A stretch of DNA of 64,000 nucleotides from Eledone cirrhosa (Eukaryota), in contig OZ024743.1 in assembly GCA_964016885.1 (NCBI GenBank), forward strand, positions 77,190,001 to 77,254,000. Reading direction: 5' to 3'. The position numbers and the translations under genes are program-made. Under the pieces are notes generated by a model, which was not told the origin of the DNA, made no database searches, and saw nothing but the letters and a program-made list of their open reading frames with translations. This document shows, piece after piece, positions 3,358 to 62,579 of the stretch; the first letter of the stretch is position 1, and every line of letters starts with the position of its first letter.

Positions 3358-3385
3358 ATGGCGAACATCTTCAAAACTTCTATTG
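3358..3385 (+). CDS. AP1G1: Probable upstream coding exon of AP-1 gamma adaptin (exon 3341-3385), encoding MANIFKTSI+G, phase 1
   Basis: Acceptor tatcttttag ends at 3340, aacATGG is a strong start context, and donor TTG|gtaagt is at 3386. The leftover G joins the GT at 6913 to give Gly in frame with MPTPKRLR. Confidence 0.62.
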
Positions 3386-6300
3386 GTAAGTGGTTTTAAA
3401 TAATTTAAATTATATATATTTATATATATATATATCTTGTCTTTACACGTACACACACACATGCACATATATATATGTATATAATATATATACATATATA
3501 TATATAGTTATTCAGAAATATTTTGCTTGAATTAATTGTTTTTTACCCTCTAGTTTGGATAATTCTCAGTAGTTTTTGTGGCTGATTTGATAAGTAGTGG
3601 GTGTTAATTTCACTTGATCAAGTAATTTATGTATCTCTTAGTGTTTATTGTTGGTATTTTATGTATCTCTCAGTAGCATTTATTGTTGGTATTTTGTGTA
3701 TCTCTTAGTAGCATTTATTGTTGGCGTGTTTGTATTTGTTAGATCTTGACAAGAAAATAACCTGCAGATAAAACTATTATATTTGAATTTACATTGGGAT
3801 TTCCTTTTTTTTAAATTTAGTCAATGATATTGATGATGGCATTAATACAAAGCTGTTTAGTGGCTTCAGACTATCAAAGCTCTTAATAAGATAAATGATT
3901 TATTAGTAGGTGTTTTGTATTTTTTCTCTTTATTTTCTGATCTCATGAATATATTCTTACTGTGAACTGACTAAGCTAAATTCATTTTTGTTTTATAACA
4001 TTATTAAAATAAAATTTCGAATTTCTACATTTCTAAATTTCAAGTAATAAATATAAGGCTTTGAATATTCGTGTATGGAGATATTTTTATATAGAAATAT
4101 ATTTTTTATTAATGTTTCCCCGATTTTAAGAATAGTTATATCGTATTCCTGCATGTCATAAGAGGCAGGTAAAGGGTTGGCATGAAGAAGGGCACCTAGC
4201 TGTAAAATATTGTCTCAAAACATCCCATCCAACCCATGCTAACATGGAAAAGTGAATGTAAAAAATGATGAAACAAAACATTTATCTTCATTAATATAGT
4301 AAACCAATTTCATTTTTTTTTCACCTGGTAATTAATTTTGACAAACAACTTAGTTTCTCTTCAGGTGAAGTATTGTCATATTTTGCTGCAGTGTTACCAT
4401 AAAGCTTTTGTCATCTCACAATCTTTTTGATTTTCATTCAAACAAAATTTGGAACTTTTTAATTCTTTCAATAAGTGCAGTTATTGAAGGAAGAAAAAGA
4501 CATTTCGTTTTGTCTCTCAGTTGAGTCTAATATGTAATCAGAGAAAACAGTTATTCTTAAAATTACAAATAATTGTCTGAAATAAATGGAAAGACTTTCT
4601 TAAGAAACCATAACATATAATAGTTTCTGATTTAGGCACAAGGCCTACAATTTTGGGGAAGGAAAAGTTGATTAAATCGAGCCCAGTGCATTACTGGTAC
4701 TTTATTTTATTGACCCCTGTAAGGATGAAAGGCAAAGCTAACCTTGGTGGGATTTGAACTCAGAATGTAAAGGGATATAACTATAAGTTGCAAGCATGGT
4801 GTCCAATGTTCTACTGATTCTGCCAATCTAACCATATAATGGCTGATGAATTGCTTTAATAAATCTTACAGGCTTTTTGTTTTAGCTGCTGAGTTTAATT
4901 TATATAATATCTCTGAAAACCAGAACAAAATAAAATCTATACAAATCTACAGACCTCAACAATTATAACCTTATCTTGGGCTAAATATATGTTAAAACAG
5001 CTGAACTAAGACCTCAATATCCAGCATTGATGTTTTTCAAATCCTTGGTCACTCTCAGTATTGGTTCTACATCTATCTAGATGTCATTACTGAGTTTGTC
5101 AAGAATACAGTCCATGTTTTGGTCACTCCCAGGATTGGTTCTACATCTATCTAGATGTCATCACTGAGTTTGTCAAGAATACAGTTCATGTTTTGATGCT
5201 CTTTCCTGAAGTCACATATGTTTTCACTATTTATCTGACATCATATATCTTTATTTCTTGGCTCTCTTATTACATTTTTATATCCTTTACTCTTCAGTAA
5301 TTTGAAGGGTTTTTTTTTCTGTCAGTGAAAACTGTCTTTTCTTTTTTCATTTTCTTGTATGATAAATGTTTTCCCTTTTTCATTCCAGTCTTAATCTTCC
5401 TTTGTCTGTTGGAAAATATCTTATTCAAATTATTGTATTTAAATGAAATTTATGAGTTCAAAATAAGTTGACTTTTGTTACTTTTCATTAACAAAGAATT
5501 AATAGTTGGTTTATTATTATTTTTTTTATTTTATCTTAACGGCCTCTTATCATAAACACTTTTTCCATATTGCTTATAATATAAAATGGTGATTAAAACT
5601 GATTCTTTTAGAAAGAAATAGAGATGAGATGAATTTCTTTTTTCTTTGGTTGTATGGGTTGGATGGTTCTGCAGTACAAATCTTTTTTTTCCATTTTGAT
5701 TTTGTATCCTGTGAGGTTTATTTTCAGGTTTGACCTCACCACTTTTTCCCTATATCATACTTGATATATCTCTCTATCACTACTACCCTCCACTTTTAAC
5801 TCGCAACACTTTCATCCTGTGTGTATCATTTCACATCACATACTACACCAGTGGAGCACTTTTGCACCGATTCTGTCTTAACTCATATGCACTCATAAAT
5901 ATTGCGTAGCCATCACTCATTTCTCATATTTCACTACCATATAGCATCAACTTTCTTATACTTACCATATATAGTCAAATACAGAGAAAGAAGTCCTTAG
6001 TCAACTGTGGTAATAGTTCTCTAAACATCTTAAACTATGTTTCTAACCGAGCTACTATACTTTCATTAATTGCATTATCTATGAGCAGAATTTTAGTCTG
6101 ACCATTGAGCCACTCCAGTAGCCCACAGCGTTTATTTCATGACTGTTGGTTATTTTGGTCTGTTTCATTGTTCTAAAATTGTGTTATCCTGTCAGTTTAC
6201 CAGAGGTCTCTATAATTTGTGAAACCATAAGCTGCGGCCAGACCCTCCTCATAATGGGACCACCCAGTTCTACACTGTAAATGTGGTTGGTGTTAAGAAG

Positions 6301-6912: not shown

Positions 6913-7115
6913 GTATGCCAACCCCGAAGAGATTACGGGACCTGATAAGGGAGATCCGATCAGCCCGTACTGCTGCTGATGAACGGGCTGTAGTGAACAA
7001 AGAATGTGCCCAAATTAGGGACTCGTTTAGAGATGAAGATAACACGTATCGTTGCAGAAATGTGGCTAAATTATTATATATACACATGCTTGGCTACCCA
7101 GCTCATTTTGGTCAG
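6913..7115 (+). CDS. AP1G1: AP-1 complex subunit gamma-1, exon [16 protein letters not shown]...[10 protein letters not shown] (conserved ATG at 6915)
   Basis: Recognisable gamma-adaptin N-terminus. Acceptor tttgacag, donor CAG|gtaagt. 201 nt from the ATG, phase 0. Confidence 0.97.
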
Positions 7116-8770: not shown

Positions 8771-8908
<138 letters not shown>

Positions 8909-11807: not shown

Positions 11808-12678
11808 ATGCTGTCGGGATTGGGTTTAGATCAGCAAAGTATTCTCTCCAACCTCTCGTGAGGGTACACATCTCTTCAGAGAGGAGAACCCCAGATGTAT
11901 TTCTGATAAGAGGTGTGTAGGAGGACTTATTACGAAGTCAGCAGATGGTCTGCCCAAACACAGGAAGACTCTGCTCTCACAACCCTCCCAGGAATAAATG
12001 TGAAGAAACTATTTATATTTCCTTGGAATGTAGTTTTATCTTCAGAAGCTGTTTTAGCAGTTTACACTTATATGTATTCATTTATGTATATTTGTTTTAG
12101 TTTTAAACCTTTTAATTTTTTATGTATTTTTACCCAAACAATTTAACCCTTTAGCATTTAAACCGGCCTTATCCAGCCAGAATTCTCTCACTTCTTTCTA
12201 TTCAAACCAGCCATAACCAGCCGCTCATATCAACATTAAAATATTGTTCTCAATTAAATAATAATGTCATCAAAATCTTGTAGATTTGATATTATGTGAG
12301 ATAAAGCCTTTACTGTTAAAATACAATAGTATAGAGTAATAGAAATGGGTTAAATTATAGCTGAAAATAATAACATTGTTAGATATGGTTGTCAGATCTT
12401 ACTGGGTGTTTTATGGAATAAAGGAAACTGTCTAAAGTAATGACTTTTCCCTTTGTTTCATTCAACATTTGCAGTTTTATTTAATCGCAAGACATGTCAA
12501 CCAACACTAACAATTCTGTACTTTATTTTGTCCATTCAGAGCAGGTCTCTGGTTTTGAGGATACCTTCCTCACTCCTACCAGTCTTGAGAGGTTTTGAAA
12601 AGGGTCATAGAATACTACCTTTCCCTTTCTCATGAAACAACTAAAAAAAAACTCTATTGTGGAGAAATATGTTTACTG

Positions 12679-15977: not shown

Positions 15978-16119
15978 TGATCTTACCCATCAGAATCAAT
16001 ATATACAAAGCCTGGCACTGTGTACATTGGGCTCCGTATGTTCAACAGAAATGAGCCGAGATTTAGCAGGAGAGGTAGAAAAATTATTAAAGTCTTCAAA
16101 TGCTTACATAAAGAAAAAG
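15978..16119 (+). CDS. AP1G1: AP1G1 exon (N)[47 protein letters not shown]
   Basis: Acceptor ttttactttacag, donor AAG|gtaaat, 142 nt. Phase matches the previous exon. Confidence 0.97.
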
Positions 16120-17228: not shown

Positions 17229-17325
17229 GCTACTCTGTGTGCTTTTCGTATAATTAGAAAAGTACCAGATCTTATGGAAATGTTCATTCCAGCAACTAGG
17301 TCTTTGCTCAATGAAAAAAACCATG
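17229..17325 (+). CDS. AP1G1: AP1G1 exon [32 protein letters not shown](G)
   Basis: Acceptor tttcttacag, donor ATG|gtaagt, 97 nt, in frame. Confidence 0.97.
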
Positions 17326-21570: not shown

Positions 21571-21894
21571 TTAACTTTTTATTTAATTCTATAAACAAGA
21601 CAAAAAGGAAAAAAATCTTGTATTTAAACAATGTTGTTTCACTAAAGAATTTTCTAAGTTTCATCTTTTGAATATGTCTATGTTGTTGTTCTAAAAAAAA
21701 AATGGCATTATCTACCTTGGTTTTTTATGATATGTAGGTGATCATTTTTCTTGTGTCAAACCATCAACAGGTAAGGAAGTTATATGAAGAAACAATATGA
21801 TAACTATATTATTGTTGCTCACTCAACCAAGCACATCGTTTTGTACATAATTGCTGTCAATGTACTGTTCTCTTTTGACACAAGCATCATTTGG

Positions 21895-23630
21895 TCACAC
21901 ACAGACATACACATATAGATAAACATACACACCCACACAGATATACACATATTCACACACACACACACACATATAGACACACACAGACATACACATATAG
22001 ACACACATACACACACACAGATATACACATAGACACATACACACACACACACAGACATACACATAGATATACACACACAGATACAGATATACACATAGAT
22101 ACACACACACAGATATACACATAGACACATACACACACACAGACATACACATATAGATATACACACACACAGATACACAGACATACACATGTAGACACAC
22201 ACACACACAGATACAGATATACACACATATACACATATAGATACACACATGCAGACAGATACACACACACACAAATAGATACACAGACATACAGACAGAT
22301 ACACACACACACAGACACACAGATACAGACACACACACACACATACAGACATAGATACATACACAGACATTCACACATACATACATATATATAGATACAC
22401 TCACACACATACACACATAGTTTTGTACATAAATAATTACTGTGTCAATGTATTCTCTTTTGACACAACCATCATTTCATCTCACACCCACAGTGACAGA
22501 CACTGACACAGTGAAAGACAGACACTGACACAGTGACAGACAGACACTGACAGAAACACAGACTGACACAGTGACAGACAGACACTGACACAGTGACAGA
22601 CACACTGAAAGACAGACATTGACAGGAACAGACAGTGACTGACACACTGACACAGTGACACACTGACACAGTGACAGACTGACACACAGACAGACAGACA
22701 CTGACACAGTGACAGACTGACACACAGACACTGACACAGTGACAGACAGACAGACACTGACACTGACAGACAGACACACTGACACTGTGACAGACACTGA
22801 CACTGTGACAGACACACTGACACAGAGACACAGACACAGTGACAGACAGACACACTGACAGACAGACACAGACACTGACAGACAGACACAGACACTGACA
22901 GACACAGACACTGACAGACACACTGACAGACAGACACTGACAGACAGACACTGACAGACAGACACTGACAGACAGACACAGACAGACAGACACAGACAGA
23001 CAGACACAGACAGACAGACACAGACAGACAGACACAGACAGACAGACACAGACAGACAGACACAGACAGACAGACACAGACAGACAGACAGACACAGACA
23101 GACAGACACAGACAGACAGACACAGACAGACAGACACAGACACACAGACACAGACACACAGACACAGACAGACAGACACAGACAGACAGACACAGACAGA
23201 CAGACACAGACAGACACAGACACAGACAGACAGACAGACACAGACAGACAGACAGACAGACACAGACAGACAGACAGACACAGACAGACACAGACAGACA
23301 GACACAGACAGACAGACACAGACAGACAGACACAGACAGACAGACAGACAGACACAGACAGACAGACACAGACAGACAGACACAGACAGACAGACAGACA
23401 GACACAGACACAGACAGACAGACACAGACAGACAGACAGACACAGACAGACAGACACAGACAGACAGACAGACACAGACAGACAGACACAGACAGACAGA
23501 CAGACAGACACTGACAGACAGACAGACAGACAGACAGACACTGACAGACAGACAGACAGACACAGACAGACAGACAGACAGACACAGACAGACAGACAGA
23601 CTGACACTGACAGACAGACACTGACACACG
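21895..23630. repeat. Two compound microsatellites (CA/CATA/AGAT, then GACA/CACA/CTGA)
   Basis: Directly visible; they explain the CV/LSV low-complexity ORFs. Confidence 0.97.
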
Positions 23631-23714
23631 CAGTGAAGCCATTGATTAATCTCCTCCGTTGGGAAACGTTGTGGAGACCAACTGAAAACGTGGCTTAGGA
23701 CAGTGAGGCAATTA

Positions 23715-27450: not shown

Positions 27451-30400
27451 ATTTATGTGTGATATTGCAAGTACAATAAACTCATGTATTCACTGGATTA
27501 TAGTTAATCTACAACAGGACTGATGTTATTTAAACTGACAGCAGCCTGTTTTATGTATAAAACTGGTTTTATTAAAATATATTTTCTTTTAAAATAAATA
27601 TTCTACACACTTCAATAGATTTACTGTTGTAAATAATAAGCTTAGTTGTTAATCAGATGAAATGATTTAAACATTGAATCAGTATGTCATGAAAAATACT
27701 TTAAATTATTTTACTCAAATTAATAAGATTATATTTCGAGTTGTGTATAATTTCTAAATATTTTGGCAAACTGATTTATGTCTGATTTATTAAAAGTATT
27801 TTAAATATTTAAAAATATAAGGGTGGTGGGTTGGCAGTATCGGTAGAGTGTTGGACAACATGCTTTGTGGCATATAGTTACAGACTTTTACGTTCTGATT
27901 TCAAATCCACCTGAGGTTAACTTTGCTTTCATCCTTACAGGGTCGATAAAATAAAGCACCAGTAATGTACTGGGGTCGATTTAATCGACTTTCCCCTCCC
28001 CCCAAATTGCTGGTTTTGTGCCTAAATCAGAAATTGTTTTGCTTTGAATAGTTTATCACCCAGATTAAGCAATTGACAGGAGAAAACATTTTGGAAAAGA
28101 TAAACTTTACTACCAAATTTTGAAAAATAGATTTTTCAAAAACAATATTGTATATTAAAGTATGACATCATTATTTCTACCATATAAAACTGACTTAACT
28201 TAATTATTATATAAGTAATTGATATATAAATTAGTTATAAGTTAAGGAAATGGAGAGACAGAAAGTATAGTGCCAAACTTAATTCTTTGCTTTTAGTTAA
28301 ATTCTGCAATATACGACTTTACCTTTTATCATTTTGGGGTTGATAAAACCAGTTAAGGTCAGTTGAATCAACTACATTCCTAACCATAGTGTACAGCTTT
28401 ATCCTAAAGTTAGAAATCAATGAGGATTGAAATAGAAAAATCTTATTTTAACACTTTAGCATTCACATTACTCTATATATACTATTGTATTTTCACAGTA
28501 AAGGCTTTATCCCACAATATCGAATCTATGAGATTTTGATGTTATTTATTTTTAGAACAATACCTTAACATTAGTATGAGTGGCAAGTTACAACCGGTTT
28601 GAACAGAAAGAGGTGATAGAATTCTGGTCGGATATGGCTGGTTTATATGCTACAGGGTTAAGTAGGCAATCAATTAGCTCACGTCTGTCATCATTTCTGA
28701 TCAAACTAGAAAATAACAACTAGATACTTTAATGACTTATAAATTTCATTGTTAAATATCCATTTTAATATATTCTTTACCAAAGCATTTAAGCTGAGCT
28801 CTTTTTTACCAATACATAAACAATTGTTCTTCTAGGTGTTGGATATTTAAAGAATCATTTAGGAAATGTATTTAGGAAAACTGAGATCTTTAGAAACAGA
28901 CTTCTTTGAATGGTAGATTATGGGTATTACATCCTCGAGATAAAACTATTTGAAAATATTTAACTCTTTTGTTACCAACCCAGCCAAAACCAATGAAATA
29001 AAATCACCCATTTTAAAGGTTTCCAATTTAAATTAAAATCTTCCACCATAATTTTAGATAAGAAACTTACATTAAGTTACTTAGTAATGAAATCATCATC
29101 ATCATCATTGATTAACGTCCATCTTCCACGATAGCGTGAGTTAGATGGGTCCTATTTAGAGGCAAGTTGGGTCAGGTGACCGTGTCTCACTCCTATAGGG
29201 GTGTTTCTGGCTGGTTTTCTACTGTTGGATGCCATTCCTAACTCCAACCACATCGACAGTGAGGGCTGGATGCTTTCTGTGGTGTCTTTTACACATCCAC
29301 TTTACAGTGTGGGCTGAGTGCTAATTTTAGTAAATCCCTCAAAATTCTTCATTAATTAATTAAAATAAAAAGTGTATTTCATTAGAAATGTGACCATGAA
29401 AGGGTTAAGTTAGTTGATCAGGTTTATCAATTCATGTGGAGAATTTAGCTTCTGTAATTGCTGAAATAGGAAATATATTTAATTATAATAAATGAGCTTT
29501 TGGTTGTTTATTGAAAATATATTTTGCTTCAGTTGAGTCTAAATCTAGGAAAATGATAGTATAAATATTCAGTTCTATCCATTATATTTTAATATTTATG
29601 AATTATTAATTCAAATAATTAATATTTAGATTATTTAATCTTCTATATTAATTGAAAATAAATAGGTTTTATTAAATTAGGGTCAAATAAAATGTCAGTT
29701 CTTGTAGTCTAATCATTGTTATTTTAGATGATTTGTCAAACCTATTTTAAATAAAGCTTTATTGAAAATGAAATCGTTAACAATTACAGAGTATCATTAT
29801 ACAAATAGTTCAGTAAGTAACAGATGTTACAGCTATTGTTTCATGTAGTAGATACAGTGTATGGTTAGCAGTACAGGTAAAATAACAGGTAAATAAATCA
29901 ATACTTAATCTAAACCATTAAGAACAACATATATCTGAGTGGTCTGAGAGGGCTGATAAGCATTGCAATTCAATTATTATTAAACTAATTGTAAAAAAGG
30001 TAACTAAATTAAAAAAAGATACGTTTAAAATAAGTTGTTGTTGAATATTTGTTTATTTAAAAATCAATCCACTTGTGCCTTGGCTGTATGAACATATTAG
30101 CCAACTTTTGAAATGGCACGTATGTTTTCTTTTTCCAGGATTGCCAGGTCATCCAGGTGATGGGTATATCCCATGCAACAGGCATGCTGGACGATGGGCA
30201 AAGACTGTGTCTTCAAATGGCATGTCACACACATTGTTGTCTGTAGAAGCCTTACTCTCTGCACTCTATTATTAGCATCCCTGCATTAGAAGATAATCAT
30301 TTCTGGTGTATTTTAGAAACACATTTCCTCTTACACTGTTTATCCATTTAGATTATTACTGTGAATATTAAATATTTTCTTCCTCATAGCTTCCAAAATG

Positions 30401-36059: not shown

Positions 36060-36136
36060 GTGTGTTATTGACAGCTGTCTGCCTAATCACAGAAATGTGT
36101 GAAAAGAGTCCAGACACACTGCTTCATTTTAGAAAG
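36060..36136 (+). CDS. AP1G1: AP1G1 exon (G)VLLTAVCLITEMCEKSPDTLLHFRK
   Basis: Acceptor caatttcag, donor AAG|gtaagt, 77 nt, phase 1 to phase 0. Confidence 0.97.
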
Positions 36137-39117: not shown

Positions 39118-39899
39118 TTTCATCCACTTTCTCCTATCCTGCTTCCAAATTTCTGAACTAGTGCCTAAATTAGGGACCTTTGTTATTATTTCTTAGTCTG
39201 ATAAAATAGTGTTATATTGCAATCACAATCTCTGCTCCAAAACAAATATTTGGAATTAACAAAAATGATATCTTTCAAATATCTTGGTATTAAGATCCTT
39301 CCTTTTCTTTCCAAACCAGATCATGATACTTAAACATAAAAACAAAACAATTCAATGTTAATATAATTTCAATTGTATTTTGAAAAAAATCTCCTCTATT
39401 TGATGTGGCAAATCAAAATCTTAAGTTAGCTATTGATATCAGATATTCATTTCAACATACAACTGCAATAAAAACATGGTCTCTTAATTACAAATAGAAT
39501 GAAAATAATTTTATGGCTACAAAAGTCCTTTAATTACATTTCAATTGTTTATTGACTAAATATTGTTAACTCAGCTCTTATGCAGTTTACTTCAAATCTA
39601 TTAACTTGTTTAGAATTTCACTAAGATATTTACAGGGTTTTCTATTTTTTTAAATTTTTATTTTCTGTGTATTTTTAAGTTGCTTAAATTTTGGCTTTCA
39701 TTTATCTTAAAATTCACATTCAGCTGGACTGTCAACAAATCCTGTTTAGTATTCACCAAATAAATTTCTTTGTATGGGGAAGAGGGTCTTTACATTAAAT
39801 TGTATTATTTAATCTATTTAAATATAAAGTGGTTTTATTTAACCTATTTCATATTGACTTAACTGATTTTATGTTTGACATCTTTTATGTATTCTGCAG

Positions 39900-39911
39900 G
39901 ATGATGTGGAG
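39900..39911 (+). CDS. AP1G1: Candidate 12-nt microexon GATGATGTGGAG (DDVE)
   Basis: About 68 nt of AG-free, U-rich sequence with branch-like cttaac/ctgat, then acceptor ttctgcag and donor GAG|gtagga. In frame, in the intron position of the known AP1G1 microexon. Confidence 0.62.
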
Positions 39912-40170
39912 GTAGGAACTTGGTTAGTTATTTCAATGTTTATTTTAAAAAAAAAAAAAACAAGAAAAATGCAGATTTGTGAACATAAGGTTGTGCACCT
40001 TAAAATAAGTACCTTAAAAAAAAACATTCTGAGCATGATTTCTTGTATTTTTTTTATTTTTCCCCCCTTACATTGATGGCTTTTGCTCAGTAATTACCAC
40101 CTGAGTAATTTGGGAAAATAGCTTTTTTTTCTCAACTGATTCCTCCTTCTTAACTTTCTGTTCTTTGCAG

Positions 40171-40191
40171 TACATGTCTATATTACCAGAA
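40171..40191 (+). CDS. AP1G1: Candidate 21-nt microexon TACATGTCTATATTACCAGAA (YMSILPE)
   Basis: Strong 3' splice site (cttaac plus tttctgttctttgcag), donor GAA|gtaact. In frame, no stop. Confidence 0.45.
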
Positions 40192-41019
40192 GTAACTAAA
40201 ATATTTTTAATATAACACTAAATAAATATCAAAGAAATATAATAAAAATTATATAAATTTCTTTAATATGACTTTGGTAAAAGAAATGATTTTAATAAAT
40301 TTAATTCTAAAGGTATGTTAATATATAGAACCAACAGTTATATAGTAGTAACATATATTGAATTTGGTTTGTCCATTTCACAGTTTAGATTTCACAGTTT
40401 GTATACTAAATATTAACGTCCTATATTGCATGAAACTGCATTAGCAAGATATTCTTCAAAAGTACAAAATAGCAAGCAGTATGTTTGCATCAATAAAAGA
40501 AATTGTCTTTAGTCTAATACTGCAACATTTTACAACAATTTGTTCTCAAGTAAAGATACTATAAACACTTGAATTTACAAACCTGTTTTTGGACATGTAC
40601 TAAATCATTATAGGATGTTTAGTGTTAATAGTTAGATTCTGCTTTCTTAATATATTAAATCAGAAGTGTAAAAACTGTTTACTGCTATTTCTAAGATAGG
40701 AATTAATGTAGTTGATATTCTAACACTATGCAGTGGTTCAAATTATTTTATTCTATGTAATAAATTCTAGTGTAGCGAAGCGGAGCATTTCAACCGATGT
40801 TGGTTTCTGGCAGCAGTAAATGCGTTCAACTAATTAAATCCAATCAACATATACTTAATTACATAATAATCTTTATAATTTCCATCTAACATCATTTGAA
40901 GTTCAATTTTTTAATTAAGAATAGTTTAGGAATACCTACCTTTAGAAAGTTTGGAAATGTATTAAAAGGAGAATATAAATATTATTCAAGAGATAGCATT
41001 TGAAAAAAAAAAAAAAATA

Positions 41020-41492
41020 GTTTGGCTTCTCCTAATGTAGGTTTAGCTGGCCTCCTCCTAATGTAGGTTTAGCTGGCCTCCTCCTAATGTAGGTTTAGCT
41101 GGCCTCCTCCTAAAGTAGGTTTAGCTGATCTCCTCCTAAAGTAGGTTTAGCTGATCTCCTAAAGTAGGTTTAGCTGGCCTCCTCCTAAAGTAGGTTTAGC
41201 TGGCCTCCTCCTAAAGTAGGTTTAGCTGGCCTCCTCCTAAAGTAGGTTTAGCTGGCCTCCTCCTATGAGGTTTAGCTGGCCTCTTCCTATTAGGTTTAGC
41301 TGGCCTCCTCCTATGAGGTTTAGCTGGCCTCTTCCTATGAGGTTTAGCTGGCCTCTTCCTATGAGGTTTAGCTGGCCTCTTCCTATGAGGTTTAGCTGGT
41401 CTCCTCCTATGAGGTTTAGCTGGCCTCTTCCTATGAGGTTTAGCTGGCCTCTTCCTATGAGGTTTAGCTGTCCCCCTCCTCCCATGAGGTTT
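41020..41492. repeat. 24-bp minisatellite, about 19 copies
   Basis: Repeated aggtttagctggcctc(c/t)tccta(aagt/atgt/tg). Confidence 0.95.
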
Positions 41493-41803
41493 TTATTTAA
41501 TTATTTTTTATATTAATTTATTGAAACTCTAAAATAGAAATAAGAAGTTAATATTAAACAAATTGTGTTTCTTCTAATTTATAAGTTTAACCCTTTTGAT
41601 ACCAAGCCAGCCAAAACCACCTTTGGTACTTCAATACAAAATGAGAGTTATATGACTAAACTTTTTCAAATGTTTGATTATTCAAAAAATAATTTCAAAA
41701 TCGTAAGCAGTGTCTTTCATTAGAAATATGGTAACAAAAGTGTTAAGTTTAACCCTTTAGCATTTACATTACTCTATATATACTATTATATTTTCATGGT
41801 AAA

Positions 41804-41992
41804 GGGCGGTGGATTGGCAGTATCGGTAGAGGGTCGGACGCCATGCTTTCCAGCATAGTTACGTCCCTTTACGATCTGAGTTCAAATCCCGCCGAGGTTG
41901 ACTTTGCCTTTCATCCTTACGGGGTCGATAAAATAAAGTACCAGTAATGCACTGGGTAATTGCTGGCCTTGTGCCAAAAGTAGAAACAATTA
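41804..41992 (+). mobile_element. tRNA-derived SINE, young copy. Other copies at about 4620-4835(-), 7801-7984, 27824-28035, 33660-33850, 33856-34030, 56707-56825 and 56832-57025
   Basis: A box (tggcagtatcgg), B box (gagttcaaatcc), a shared central gcctttcatccttacggggtcgataaaataaagtaccag, and a 21-bp target-site duplication (TSD). Confidence 0.9.
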
Positions 41993-42750
41993 TATTTTCA
42001 TGGTAAAGGCTTTACCTCACATAATATCTCACATAACATTTACATTACTCTATATATACTATTATATTTTCATGGTAAAGGATTTACCTCGCATAATTAT
42101 CTCACATAACATTTACATTACTCTATATATACTATTATATTTTCACAGTCAAGGCTTTACCTCACATAATATCTCGCATAACATTTACATTACTCTATAT
42201 ATACTATTGTATTTTTGTAGTAAAAGCTTTACCTCACATAATATCTCGCATAACATTTACATTACTCTATATATACTATTGTATTTTTGTAGTAAAAGCT
42301 TTACCTCACATAATATCTCGCATAACATTTACATTACTCTATATATACTATTATATTTTCGTGGTAAGGGATTTACCTCACATAATATCTCACATAACAT
42401 TTACATTACTCTATATATACTATTATATTTTCATGGTAAAGGATTTACCTCACATAATATCTCACATAACATTTACATTACTCTATATATACTATTATAT
42501 TTTCATGGTAAGGGATTTACCTCACATAATATCTCACATAACATTTACATTACTCTATATATACTATTATATTTTCATGGTAAAGGATTTACCTCACATA
42601 ATATCTCACAAAACATTTACATTACTCTATATATACTATTATATTTTCATGGTAAAGGATTTACCTCACATAATATCTCACATAACATTTACATTACTCT
42701 ATATATACTATTATATTTTCATGGTAAAGGATTTACCTCACATAATATCA
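41990..42750. repeat. 72-bp tandem repeat, about 10 copies, amplified inside a family A MITE
   Basis: Unit acatttacattactctatatatactattatattttcatggtaaaggatttacctcacataatatctcacata. Confidence 0.95.
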
Positions 42751-43228
42751 AACTTACGAAATTTTGATATTATTTATTTTGAGAACAATACCTTAACATA
42801 AGTATGAGTGGCCGGTTACAGCTGGTTTGAACAGAAAGAAGTGAGAGAGTTGTGGCTGACTACGGCAATTTAAATGCTAATGGGTTAATTCTGACTGTTC
42901 TCTAACGTTACCATTTTGTCCTAGTATTTCTTCTGTACTGGTTAGTTGAACCTTATATTAACTAACCTAATTTAAAGTCTGTCAGATGTTATATAGAATA
43001 GTGATATTTTAACTTCTGGTAATATAGAGATTTGACCGTTTCTCTGCAATCTCTGCAATATTATTGGTTTATTTTAATTCTTGGTGATGGTAACTTTCAC
43101 CTTCTTTTAAATCTTAGCTGACAGCTGCATTTACTACTATATTGACATAATTCAGCTATTTAAAAAAAACACTACTTTCTCTTACACACACACACATACG
43201 CTTAAAGACCAAAGTTTATTTTGACCAT

Positions 43229-43264
<36 letters not shown>

Positions 43265-45021
43265 AATAAAATGTATTTACTACCTATGATTTCATGGTTG
43301 CTTCTGTGTAATAATTTCATAAAAAGAACTTCCAGAATTTTCAATTTACATTTTTTTCTCCAGGTAATTACTGTTGTTAAGTTGTATTTAGGTTGGTGTC
43401 TAATGCTTGTTAAAATGGGATTAAAAGGGATAGGACAAATGTGTTGGTGTCAATATATTTGAAATTATAATCAGTGTTAATTGAATAGTTTATGTATCCT
43501 CGGGTCCCAAATAATAAGGGGTGGTTGGAATAAGTTTTTCTAGGTTGTCTCCCTTGATTTCTTTTTTTCAAAACCAGAATTACTCATTTAGTTTACATAT
43601 TGAGACCCCAATCCATCCTATTTATTTTATAACATTTGAGATTTCTAGTAATGTACTTTTTTTGCATGCATAATGTTTTTTAATGTACAAAGAAAATTGT
43701 CGCAGGGATGCTATAACTTAAAATAAAATTTTGCTGGAGATAGATTAGCAAAAAGCGGGGGTGGGTGGAAAAAATTTGAAAAACTAATAGCGAGGTGGGG
43801 TAATTATTGGAGACGAGAGTAAATGGAGTGAAGCCAAATATGTTGAAATAGGACAAGGTTTCTGCTCTAATTAACAGTTTGAGTTTGTGTATAATTTTAT
43901 TATTTAGTAATACTTTTGTAATTACAATAGTGTTATGTTGGCTGTTGTTGTTTAGCCCCAAGTCAGCTATGGTCTAACGGATTTCTGACCAAGAGTGTTT
44001 AATTTAAACCCCCCCCCCCTTCATATATAATGTATCTAGAACCATATTTCCCAACACATTTTTGGTTTTAAGATAGTAGGATGTGTGATTTGAAAGAAAT
44101 TTGGTTGCTATGCTCAGAGGCTCCCTTTGAAAATATGTACAAATCATTTCATGCTATAAAATTGTTGAGACTGGCTGATGTGCTCACCATGCATGGACAG
44201 CCTCTGTTCTCAATTGTGTGGATGCAGTGGTTTGAGCTGGCTCAACCTGCAGTGACTGGAGCTGGCTCAACCTGCAGTGACTGGAACTGGCTCAACCTGC
44301 AGTGGTTTGAGTTAGCTCAACCTGCAGTGGTTGGAGCTGGCTCAACCTATCTTAGGGGAATGCCAACATACGTACACGTAATAAAGCCAACTTTTAGTCA
44401 GTTGATCAGTTATTCTAATATGTAGTATCATATAGTAGTTTACAACTTCCAAGAGAAAACATTTATATAGTAACATCTAACCCTAACCATTACTGCTACA
44501 ACTACTACCATAGCTACTAATACCATTACTGCTACAACTACTACCTTTATTTTTTTGTACTGAACTATTAAATGTATCTTTCAATCCTGTGTATTTAACA
44601 TTACCTTTTATTAATCAATCCCTTACCATTTGTTTTGTTTGTATTTTTAACCCTGTCATGTCTACATTTCCAATGAAATACACTTTATTTTAATTAATGA
44701 AGAATTTTGAGGGATTTACTAAAATTATTAATTATTTTGTTACTAACATAGTAACTTAAGGTAAGGTTCTTATATAAAATTATGTTGAAAGCTTTTAATT
44801 TAAATTGGAAACCTTTAAAATGGGTGGTTTTATTTCATAGAACCAGAGCTGGTTTTGGCTGGGTTGGTAACTAAAGGGTTAAAGAATATAAGGAAATTAT
44901 GAGTCTAACTTATGCTAGTGTGGAAAATGGACGTTAAATGATGATGATATAGCTAATTTATATATATTAAGGAACTGTGAAAAGTAAGAAAATGGAAACT
45001 AATCAAAAGAAACTTTGGTTA

Positions 45022-45242
<221 letters not shown>

Positions 45243-45650
45243 CAATAATGTTTTAATCCATTGCTTATTAAACACTTCATGAACATCAGTGAGAAAAACC
45301 CTATATTTCTCTTCATTAATAGTTATGACATGAATTAAATTTCATAATTATTTCTATAATTGTCACTAAATATATTTTAATTTATAAATACTAATCCATT
45401 AAATTGAGTTTCTTTCCTTATTTTTTATTTTTTTTTAATTGGAATATAACTTTCATATTATTATTATAATTAGTCAGCACTGAATATTTCCTCTTTTGTT
45501 TTCATGCATAAAATATTGTTTTTTCTCTCATTGATTATAAGATACTTAAATTATTTTAATAAGAACTTTTTATAAGAAGTTTAATTTTTAAATCATATTT
45601 TTGTGGAATCCATTATTTATTTTTTCTTCTATGTTGAAATTGTTAAATAT

Positions 45651-46066
45651 GCCTGTTGGTCAGACTCTCTATAGCCTGTTGGTCAGACTCTGTATAGCCT
45701 GTTGGTCAGACTCTCTATAGCCTGTTGGTCAGACTGTATAGCCTGTTGGTCAGACTCTCTATAGCCTGTTGGTCAGACTCTGTATAGCCTGTTGGTCAGA
45801 CTGTATAGCCTGTTGGTCAGACTGTATAGCCTGTTGGTCAGACTGTATAGCCTGTTGGTCAGACTCTCTATAGCCTGTTGGTCAGACTCTCTATAGCCTG
45901 TTGGTCAGACTCTCTATGGCCTGTTGGTCAGACTCTCTATGGCCTGTTGGTCAGACTCTCTATAGCTTGTTGGTCAGACTATATAGCCTGTTGGTCAGAC
46001 TCTCTATAGCCTGTTGGTCAGACTCTCTATAGCCTGTTGGTCAAGCTCTGTATAGCCTGTTGGTCA
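45651..46066. repeat. 20-24-bp minisatellite
   Basis: Repeated tagcctgttggtcagact(ct)(c/g)ta. Confidence 0.95.
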
Positions 46067-46183
46067 TTGCAATACTAGTCTTCAATAATCTGGGAATTTT
46101 GACAGATGGAATATATTTTCCCCTTATCAACCTCCATAGTTTACCAAATATGTACTGTGATTCAGTTAAACTGTTGTAGAATC

Positions 46184-46294
<111 letters not shown>

Positions 46295-46302
46295 AGAGCT
46301 GA

Positions 46303-48266
46303 TCAGTTATATTGTTGTTTAGAGTGATAATGGCTGATAGATAGGGATATCATGCCAGTTATATTGTTGTTTAGAGTGACAATGGCTGATAGATAGGGAT
46401 ATCATGCCAGTTATATTGTTGTTTAGAGTGACAATGGCTGATAGATAGGGATATCATGCCAGTTATATTGTTGTTTAGAGTGACAATGGCTGATAGATAG
46501 GGATATCATGCCAGTTATATTGTTGTTTAGAGTGACAATGGCTGATAGATAGGGATATCATGATAGTTATATTGTTGTTTAGAGTGACAATGGCTGATAG
46601 ATAGGGATATCATGCCAGTTATATTGTTGTTTAGAGTGACAATGGCTGATAGATAGGGATATCATGATAGTTATATTGTTGTTTAGAGTGACAATGGCTG
46701 ATAGATAGGGATATCATGCCAGTTATATTGTTGTTTAGAGTGACAATGGCTGATAGATGGGGATATCATGATAGTTATATTGTTGTTTAGAGTGACAATG
46801 GCTGATAGATAGGGATATCATGATAGTTATATTGTTGTTTAGAGTGACAGTGGCTGATAGATAGGGATATCATGATAGTTATATTGTTGTTTAGAGTGAC
46901 AATGGCTGATAGATAGGGATATCATGATAGTTATATTGTTGTTTAGAGTGACAATGGCTGATAGATAGGGATATCATGATAGTTATATTGTTGTTTAGAG
47001 TGACAATGGCTGATAGATAGGGATATCATGATAGTTATATTGTTGTTTAGAGTGACAATGGCTGATAGATAGGGATATCATGATAGTTATATTGTTGTTT
47101 AGAGTGACAGTGGCTGATAGATAGGGATATCATGATAGTTATATTGTTGTTTAGAGTGACAATGGCTGATAGATAGGGATATCATGATAGTTATATTGTT
47201 GTTTAGAGTGACAATGGCTGATAGATAGGGATATCATGATAGTTATATTGTTGTTTAGAGTGACAGTGGCTGATAGATAAGGATATCATGATAGTTATAT
47301 TGTTGTTTAGAGTGACAATGGCTGATAGATAGGGATATCATGATAGTTATATTGTTGTTTAGAGTGACAGTGGCTGATAGATAGGGATATCATGATAGTT
47401 ATATTGTTGTTTAGAGTGACAGTGGCTGATAGATAGGGATATCATGATAAACAACAATATAATTATCATGATATCCCCATCTATTAGCCATTGTCACTCT
47501 AAACAACAATATAACTGGCATGATATCCCCATCTATCAGCCATTGTCATGCTAAACAACAATATAACTGGCATGATAACCCTATCTATCAGCCATTGTCA
47601 CTCTAAACAACAATATAACTGGCATGATATCCCCATCTATCAGCCATTGTCATGCTAAACAACAATATAACTGGCATGATAACCCTATCTATCAGCCATT
47701 GTCACTCTAAACAACAATATAACTGGCATGATAACCCTATCTATCAGCCATTGTCACTCTAAACAACAATATAACTGGCATGATATCCCCATCTATCAGC
47801 CATTGTCATGCTAAACAACAATATAACTGGCATGATAACCCTATCTATCAGCCATTGTCACTCTAAACAACAATATAACTGGCATGATAACCCTATCTAT
47901 CAGCCATTGTCACTCTAAACAACAATATAACTGGCATGATAACCCTATCTATCAGCCATTGTCACTCTAAACAACAATATAACTGGCATGATAACCCTAT
48001 CTATCAGCCATTGTCACTCTAAACAACAATATAACTGGCATGATAACCCTATCTATCAGCCATTGTCACTCTAAACAACAATATAACTGGCATGATAACC
48101 CTATCTATCAGCCATTGTCACTCTAAACAACAATATAACTGGCATGATAACCCTATCTATCAGCCATTGTCATGCTAAACAACAATATAACTGGCATGAT
48201 AACCCTATCTATCAGCCATTGTCACTCTAAACAACAATATAACTGGCATGATAACCCTATCTATCA
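46303..48266. repeat. 52-bp satellite: about 22 forward units, then about 16 reverse-complement units
   Basis: Unit agttatattgttgtttagagtgacaatggctgatagatagggatatcatg(cc/at). Orientation switches at about 47449. Confidence 0.97.
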
Positions 48267-61551: not shown

Positions 61552-61656
<105 letters not shown>

Positions 61657-62579
61657 TAAGTCATCTCAGTGTGTGTTTGTGTACATGTGTATGCACTCTT
61701 TCAACATTACTCCAAAGACCCTTTGGAGAACTCCATTTTGGCTGCTTGTATTGGCGATCATATTCTTTCAGTCATTACCCAAGATTCTTGACCATAGGTA
61801 AGGGTCGGCACAAATATCAAATTGGAGACATTGAGTTTGGCTTTTACACCTACTTCCCTTCTTCTGAATGCTGAAGCTGTTCCATTACTGCACCAGCTCC
61901 TGTAATTCTTGCACTTAATCAGCCTCCTGCCTTCCATCACTTGTGAACATGACCCCGAGATACTTGAACTTCTCTACCTGCTTCAGTGGAACTCCATTCA
62001 TGAAATCTGGCTCAAGATATTAAAAGCCTTCACAATATTATAAGAAACTAAAATGAAATTATAATAAAACACCTGAGGCTGTTGTTAATATATAGAACAA
62101 TAATATAAATATTTCTAGCTGAGGTCTAGGGAGGTGTGTAGTCTATTTGATTTTCCCAATTCTTGCCTGGGACTTAGGGAATTATATTATCATTCTATAT
62201 AACTGTGTTGTGAGAGTTTTTTGGGGAGCTACAGGTGTTACCCCTTGCTCCATCTCCCCTAGTAGTTTACCACTATTGGTCCAGGATTCCTTATTCGTCC
62301 GGCAGCTGCCCACTTATATCGCAACTAACCATCATATCTGGTGGCCATATCGCTACCTGCAACCCATTCTCTAGCAGAGCAACAACCTTCTCAGGAATAA
62401 ATGAGCAAAGAAAAAGATATAATTATTTCTAGTTGAGTTATGGGGCTAGAGATTTATAGGGAAGAGTGTAGTATATTTGCCTGGGATTTTATTGACCTTA
62501 GAAGGATGAAGACTGTAATTATAAGCTTCAAGGTATTTTGTCCAATACTTCACTGGTTCTGCCATCTGCTGCTTAATAT

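Follow-up and report, generated by a model that had tools for sequence, protein, structure and literature searches.

The helix-helix turn of the AP-1 gamma trunk encoded at the HFRK^LVPQ exon junction takes alternative inserts in several animal groups (vertebrates, cephalopods, gastropods, a bivalve, a brachiopod and a nemertean), and this context is the firmer result of the present analysis. In the octopod Eledone cirrhosa, the intron at this junction carries a 12-nt microexon encoding DDVE and, further downstream, a 21-nt open stretch encoding YMSILPE. There is about an even chance that this second stretch is a pseudo-exon, not or rarely spliced into AP-1 gamma mRNA, and this reading is favored because its donor is weak and because it is absent from the known cephalopod forms of the protein. 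The estimate balances the atypical donor and the silence of the annotations against an acceptor of the microexon type, the proximity of DDVE and the precedent in relatives.

The AP-1 gamma-1 gene and its 25.4-kb intron

The analyzed window, a 64-kb stretch of a 3.0-Gb genome (G000:C4:77190001-77254000), carries on its plus strand the 5' half of the AP-1 gamma-1 adaptin gene. In a family search of the whole genome, PF01602 (Adaptin_N) was matched exon by exon across the window; the first coding exon showed 100% identity to Octopus bimaculoides XP_014784171.1 (P0002), and the best PDB match of the octopod protein P0134 was 1w63_A, AP-1 gamma-1 (E 2.3e-286). The host is the octopod AP-1 gamma-1 gene. 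Coding exons were located by tblastn of XP_014784171.1 at ~6915-7115, ~8783-8907, ~15978-16119 and ~17229-17325, all on the plus strand. The constitutive exon upstream of the junction, ending in LLHFRK (...GVLLTAVCLITEMCEKSPDTLLHFRK), was placed at 36060..36136 (+) by tblastn of P0002 and P0134; it ends in phase 0 with the donor AGAAAG/gtaagt at 36136. The constitutive downstream exon, beginning LVPQLVRIL, lies at 61552..61647 (+, tblastn) and starts in phase 0 behind the acceptor ttttgtag (border ttgtag/CTTGTTCCACAG at 61552); its own donor is CAA/gtaagt. The HFRK-to-LVPQ intron is therefore a phase-0 intron of 25.4 kb, and its G+C content is 33%. Large parts of the introns are filled by long microsatellite and minisatellite arrays (window positions 21800-23700, 41200-42800 and 45000-48100) with TG/CA-type, 52-nt and ~60-nt periods. 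No Rfam match at the gathering score was obtained for non-coding RNA in the window.

Sequences matching several other alternative exons were observed in the gene. A 33-nt exon, G-DHFSCVKPST-G (tatgtag/...CAG/gtaagg), occupies window positions 21738-21770 (+) in the phase-1 intron that separates the EKNH(G) exon from the (G)VLL exon. The splice-site scan picked it out blind, and its DHFSCVKPST corresponds to the DHFSSVKPST insert carried by isoforms of O. sinensis and O. vulgaris. At 30139-30219 (+), the sequence LPGHPGDGYIPCNRHAGRWAKTVSSN is homologous to an insert of 26-29 residues (LPGHPGEGYIPCNRHAGRWARTVSPN) found in isoforms of O. bimaculoides and O. sinensis. Where this exon is expected to end, the following intron would begin with GC (AATG/gcatgt), not GT, so that either a GC-AG intron would be used or the species would splice the exon in another way or have lost it. 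At 3358-3387 (+), an alternative exon for the 5' end of the coding sequence encodes MANIFKTSIG, with which several Octopus isoforms begin without a difference; some isoforms of O. bimaculoides begin MNHKSTTILAQIQ... instead. Elsewhere in the genome, an uninterrupted 506-residue frame (G000:C10:16460764-16462242, L001) matches Adaptin_N at positions 30-523 (E 3.6e-62). It was rejected as an AP-1 gamma retrocopy (mRNA fossil), since tblastn gave no match to AP-1 gamma, and may represent an adaptin-like gene without introns or a retrocopy made from a different adaptin.

The 12-nt microexon DDVE (ttctgcag/GATGATGTGGAG/gtagga) lies at 39900..39911 (+) within the HFRK-to-LVPQ intron and was recognized from its sequence and from homologous inserts in other cephalopods. 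HFRK-DDLE-LVPQ occurs in isoforms of Octopus sinensis and O. bimaculoides, and a transcript-derived decapod protein reads HFRK-DDYE-LVPQ; at this junction, DDLE is carried by P0002, P0127, P0130 and P0134, and DDYE by P0138. DDVE is evidently a real, conserved microexon at the HFRK-LVPQ junction.

The candidate, TACATGTCTATATTACCAGAA (YMSILPE, phase 0-0), was identified at 40171..40191 (+) from the sequence and from splice-border scans, in the context cttcttaactttctgttctttgcag/TACATGTCTATATTACCAGAA/gtaact, continuing gtaactaa. The sequence-only reading of this DNA had described a stop-free 21-nt microexon here, 259 nt past DDVE, and the description agrees letter for letter: 259 nt separate the end of DDVE (39911) from the candidate downstream, the borders are cag/21 nt/gt, the length is a multiple of 3 and no stop is present. 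Because the flanking exons are in phase 0, the candidate is in frame alone or joined to DDVE. A genome search with the candidate region (261 nt) returned the self-hit only, so that the region is single copy and a repeat origin was ruled out. Positions 39700-40458 were recovered as one 1431-nt contig with 0 differences in three sequencing runs from one sample, which behave as DNA and are silent on splicing.

DDVE (DD[LVY]E) and the candidate share one intron, phase 0-0, a TGCAG acceptor and a final Glu. They differ in that DD[LVY]E is present in annotated or assembled cephalopod proteins (5/20) and has a donor with both G-1 and G+5, whereas the donor of the candidate has neither. The shared Glu end, which had been pointed out before, is correct as an observation; it is expected from the GAR/gt form of a phase-0 donor, and 2.2% of the open 21-nt windows of the intron end in Glu. 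The candidate was also considered as a tandem copy of the DDVE unit, and this origin was rejected: the local alignment score of 17 was matched by 399/500 shuffles, and the absence of detectable similarity between the two regions speaks against any recent tandem duplication as its source.

Splice signals of the YMSILPE stretch and their chance expectation

The acceptor region of the candidate is an AG-free, pyrimidine-rich tract at 40115..40170 (+; ttcctccttctt...ttctgttcttt). It contains the branch-point-like cttaac, with the A at about -18, and UGC immediately 5' of the AG, so that sequences like the branch point and pyrimidine tract reported by the sequence-only reading are there. A UGC between the branch point and the AG is present in 74-79% of SRRM3/4-dependent microexons, according to the available part of a preprint (bioRxiv 10.1101/2024.09.17.613571). 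The candidate acceptor, tttctgttctttgcag, has this UGC and the strong pyrimidine tract of the SRRM3/4 (eMIC) type, and the architectures are alike in their CU-rich tract, the UGC between branch point and AG and the long AG-free zone. TGCAG acceptors are found in 0/16 constitutive exons of the gene and in both DDVE and the candidate. Among the 86 TGCAG sites in 111.7 kb, a clean upstream tract (28 nt free of AG and at least 70% pyrimidine) is present at four, 12475, 39900, 40171 and 80120; two of these, separated by 271 nt, belong to DDVE and the candidate. The sites at 12475 and 80120 (the latter in the neighboring stretch, numbered as window plus offset) are two further acceptors with clean pyrimidine tracts. 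As read from these features, the candidate has an unusually good acceptor-like site of the microexon type.

The donor of the candidate, gtaact after GAA (40192..40197, +), was assessed by comparison with the other donors of the gene. It is present as the sequence-only reading had written it, GAA/gtaact, and has neither G-1 nor G+5. At least one of these guanines is kept by each of 17 donors (16 constitutive ones and DDVE), as it is by the donors of the 33-nt alternative exon (CAG/gtaagg) and of the LVPQ exon (CAA/gtaagt), so that 0/19 lack both; among intronic GT dinucleotides, 932/1439 lack both. In the accessible text of the same preprint, the SRRM3/4-dependent microexons are reported to have stronger, not weaker, 5' splice sites (bioRxiv 10.1101/2024.09.17.613571), and in this the weak GAA/gtaact differs from the strong 5' splice site of the eMIC class. 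Scored by an independent-position matrix, the donor reaches 7.4 bits, inside the range of the real donors (2.4-13.3), and 26/1439 GT sites reach this value. The donor of DDVE, GAG/gtagga, has G-1 and G+5 and scores 4.95 bits.

The excess of the site pair over chance depends on the model. A weight matrix was built from the 16 donors and 16 acceptors of the gene, with the scores of the candidate itself as cut-offs (donor 7.4 bits, acceptor 3.3). In block-shuffled introns, this plain matrix gave 0.95 hits per intron on average and at least one hit in 63.5% of 200 shuffles, and in the whole gene it gave three hits, including the genuine alternative exon at 21738-21770. Another scan hit was a 15-nt in-frame mini-ORF at window positions 62119-62133, after the LVPQ exon. 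Under a simpler, looser consensus rule, the intron contains five in-frame mini-ORFs whose borders resemble splice sites, namely DDVE, the candidate and three others. A combined rule was also applied, consisting of UGC-AG, a pyrimidine tract, an AG-free zone, an open frame of at most 51 nt and a donor score no lower than 5 bits. With this rule the candidate was the sole hit in the real gene, decoys (100 block-shuffled sequences) gave 0.14 hits per 111.7 kb and the reversed sequence gave 0; when UGC was omitted, 7 real hits were obtained vs 3.1 in decoys. DDVE itself fails the combined rule narrowly (donor 4.95 bits vs the cut-off of 5). Since the criteria of the combined rule were partly picked after the candidate had been seen, the true chance level of a hit within 300 nt of DDVE lies somewhere between ~0.001 and ~0.04.

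Two features lie downstream of the candidate. Read-through of its donor would encode YMSILPEVTKIFLI and then reach a stop at 40213-40215, followed by AATAAA at 40221-40226. Further on, a TGCATG at 40427..40432 (+) was located from the sequence and the contig depth. The sequence-only reading had listed this hexamer among the signals of the exon, and it is present, but it lies across the border at which a high-copy repeat begins (40429..40590, no strand assigned; contig word depth 6,000 to over 100,000). The intron holds nine TGCATG, and 9.8% of its positions have one at most 300 nt downstream. Contig depth rises from ~8-10 to values between 6,000 and more than 100,000 from ~40413-40429 onward. 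The repeat starts 238 nt past the candidate and shows many loose ends (at 40429, 40469, 40549, 40583 and 40590), with dozens of junction variants.

Inserts at the HFRK^LVPQ junction and the turn that receives them

In cephalopods, 20 proteins spanning the junction were inspected, comprising the 15 listed of the 20 members of an octopod cluster and 5 of a decapod cluster. No insert was present in 15/20, DDLE in 4/20 and DDYE in 1/20, and a 7- or 11-residue insert was found in 0/20. Shorter fragments included no cephalopod among the best 120 of 489 hits, and a DDVE-anchored pattern and a degenerate pattern of the candidate each gave 0 matches in metagenome contigs. The annotations of the inspected cephalopods do include alternative exons of 12, 33 and 87 nt. 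They are not exhaustive: in the newer annotation of O. bimaculoides, even DDLE is absent from the six isoforms listed, and the octopod sample covers 15 of the 20 cluster members.

Across animals, the junction pattern was matched by 138 inspected proteins of at least 300 residues, of which 101 had no insert and 37 had one, and the junction tolerates inserts of 1-24 residues. The junction states were GSRHD/GSKHD/GTRHD, GKE and none in Haliotis; GVFIIE, ESE and none in Pomacea; VKE, Q and none in Littorina; and none, DTDMD, DTDMD+CTVAVRMQASCTNVFYYAR (19 aa) and NKPDPLESSWQSYMNL (16 aa) in Lineus. Single inserts were recorded in Gigantopelta (VSDN), Biomphalaria (VC), Argopecten (VR), Lingula (DEFME), Batillaria (VSE) and a Logan protein (FQKDKFSAPC), and a primate protein (Saguinus, P0148) carries NEK exactly at HFRK^LVPQ. 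Proteins with junction inserts include P0148, P0010, P0260, P0290, P0291, P0064, P0321, P0323 and P0072. In the NCBI models of Haliotis, Pomacea, Littorina and Lineus, at least two alternative inserts lie between HFRK and [LVT]V[PS]Q. These lophotrochozoan cassettes show the pattern of several inserts at one site that the sequence-only reading had proposed for octopus; they are transcript-supported and belong to other phyla or classes, their inserts are unrelated and none is homologous to YMSILPE. Unlike them, the octopod annotations show one insert type. The presence of multi-insert cassettes in relatives makes a second exon in octopods more plausible from the outset.

A 9-nt neural microexon of AP1G1 has been described in zebrafish (DreEX0013683) and human (HsaEX0004874) in the portions of PMC12626424 available to us. 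It was reported there that the PSI is 76-93 in neural samples and at most 10 elsewhere (PMC12626424, supplement files 2, 6, 7), and that the microexon responds to eMIC loss or overexpression (PMC12626424). RT-PCR in zebrafish gave bands of 105 and 114 nt with primers in the SPDML and PEHDVS codons (PMC12626424, supplement file 9). By our own reading of these primers in that supplement, they bracket HFRK^LVPQ, which places the vertebrate 9-nt microexon at the same junction. The vertebrate microexon and the candidate are alike in junction, protein, preservation of frame and very short length, whereas the vertebrate exon has 9 nt and measured neural inclusion and the candidate has 21 nt and a weak donor. 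If real, the candidate would add a further cassette to a microexon site already known in AP1G1. The junction is a microexon site of deep ancestry or, alternatively, a hot spot at which exons have arisen repeatedly. In the accessible part of a preprint (10.64898/2026.09.05.749416), only APBB and MADD are named as confidently bilaterian-ancestral neural microexons; the same preprint includes O. bimaculoides splicing tables, which may bear on the candidate exon.

In the PDB chain 1w63_A, the junction falls between chain positions 219 and 220, corresponding to about K214/L215 if the first five residues of the chain are a tag. All solved gamma chains are without an insert. An AlphaFold model was made of the natural DDLE isoform with a 50-sequence alignment (mean pLDDT 75.9); it places the insert in the turn that links helix 216-223 to helix 229-242, where pLDDT dips locally to 76 (residues 221-230). 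The nearest documented contacts of this stretch of gamma, in the consulted part of bioRxiv 10.1101/2022.05.23.493093, are those of gamma K144/K147/S149, and of K186 with sigma1 K129/K133, which are lattice and Arf1-bridge contacts; these gamma residues precede the insertion turn by at least 28 residues in the sequence. If the exon is real, the more conservative guess is a longer helix-helix turn that would modulate assembly or partner contacts.

Readings of the stretch

On the pseudo-exon reading, the stretch combines a good acceptor-like site and a weak, donor-like GT, and it does so in single-copy DNA of the intron near the real DDVE exon. Counting against this reading are the quality and microexon type of the acceptor, a donor score inside the range of the real donors, the single-copy state of the region, the different inserts of relatives at the junction and annotations that are not exhaustive. 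Recognition of a 21-nt exon would be expected to lean heavily on U1 binding at the donor, and GAA/gtaact is without the two guanines (-1, +5) of which all 19 accepted donors of the gene have at least one. Owing to such a donor on a 21-nt exon, the spliceosome would usually skip the candidate and join HFRK (or DDVE) straight to LVPQ.

It is possible, if doubtful, that the stretch is a real alternative 21-nt microexon, probably neural and dependent on Srrm234/eMIC. Together with DDVE, as many as four states (none, DDVE, YMSILPE and DDVEYMSILPE) would then be available in the inter-helix turn of the gamma trunk. Several lines of evidence argue for this: the CU-rich acceptor with UGC-AG resembles that of DDVE and is rare in the gene, the stretch is single copy and in frame in a phase-0 intron, the junction has multi-insert cassettes in Haliotis, Pomacea, Littorina and Lineus, and it accepts inserts of 1-24 residues in a modeled inter-helix turn. 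They are set against a donor unlike 19/19 accepted ones in lacking G-1 and G+5, the presence of the insert in 0/20 cephalopod proteins and a chance expectation under the plain model of about one such hit per intron. By analogy, we tentatively suggest that the K214/L215 turn in octopus may be a combinatorial nervous-system cassette, the cephalopod version of the hot spot seen in abalone, apple snail and ribbon worm, which would tune neuronal AP-1 assembly or cargo handling.

Less probable still is a regulatory role, in which the pyrimidine/UGC tract would be a downstream element of DDVE (with PTB-, U2AF- or SRRM-type sites) or a decoy 3' splice site leading to an unproductive transcript. The tract lies in single-copy DNA, 200-260 nt beyond DDVE, which is consistent with this, as are the combination of a strong acceptor with a poor donor and the read-through stop followed by AATAAA. 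However, AATAAA and T-rich tracts are common in an intron of such low G+C content, and no truncated gamma with such an end occurs among the 20 junction-spanning cephalopod proteins.

YxxPhi sorting signals lie in the cytosolic tails of membrane cargo and are bound by AP mu subunits. The sequence-only reading had compared the insert to such a signal, and YMSI does fit the pattern; the comparison goes no further than these four residues. Y-x-x-[LIMFV] occurs in 1592/15776 (10.1%) of the open 21-nt windows of the intron, and YMSI, unlike the signals in cargo tails, would sit in a helix-helix turn of the adaptor itself. That the insert is a built-in pseudo-cargo, docking in the tyrosine-motif pocket of mu1 and autoregulating AP-1, is very improbable: YMSI would come after the acidic DDVE and the Lineus insert NKPDPLESSWQSYMNL (P0323) contains the similar YMNL, but the idea presupposes a real exon, the pattern appears in no other junction insert and the nearest gamma contacts documented in the consulted part of bioRxiv 10.1101/2022.05.23.493093 are with the lattice and Arf1, not with mu1.

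If the exon is unused, which is judged somewhat likelier, the case illustrates that a good acceptor and an open frame are insufficient to call a microexon. If the exon is used, AP-1 gamma would have a tunable loop of multiple lengths in cephalopod neurons, at the position of the 3-residue neural microexon of vertebrates, and would provide a new case in the debate on ancestral versus recurrent microexons.
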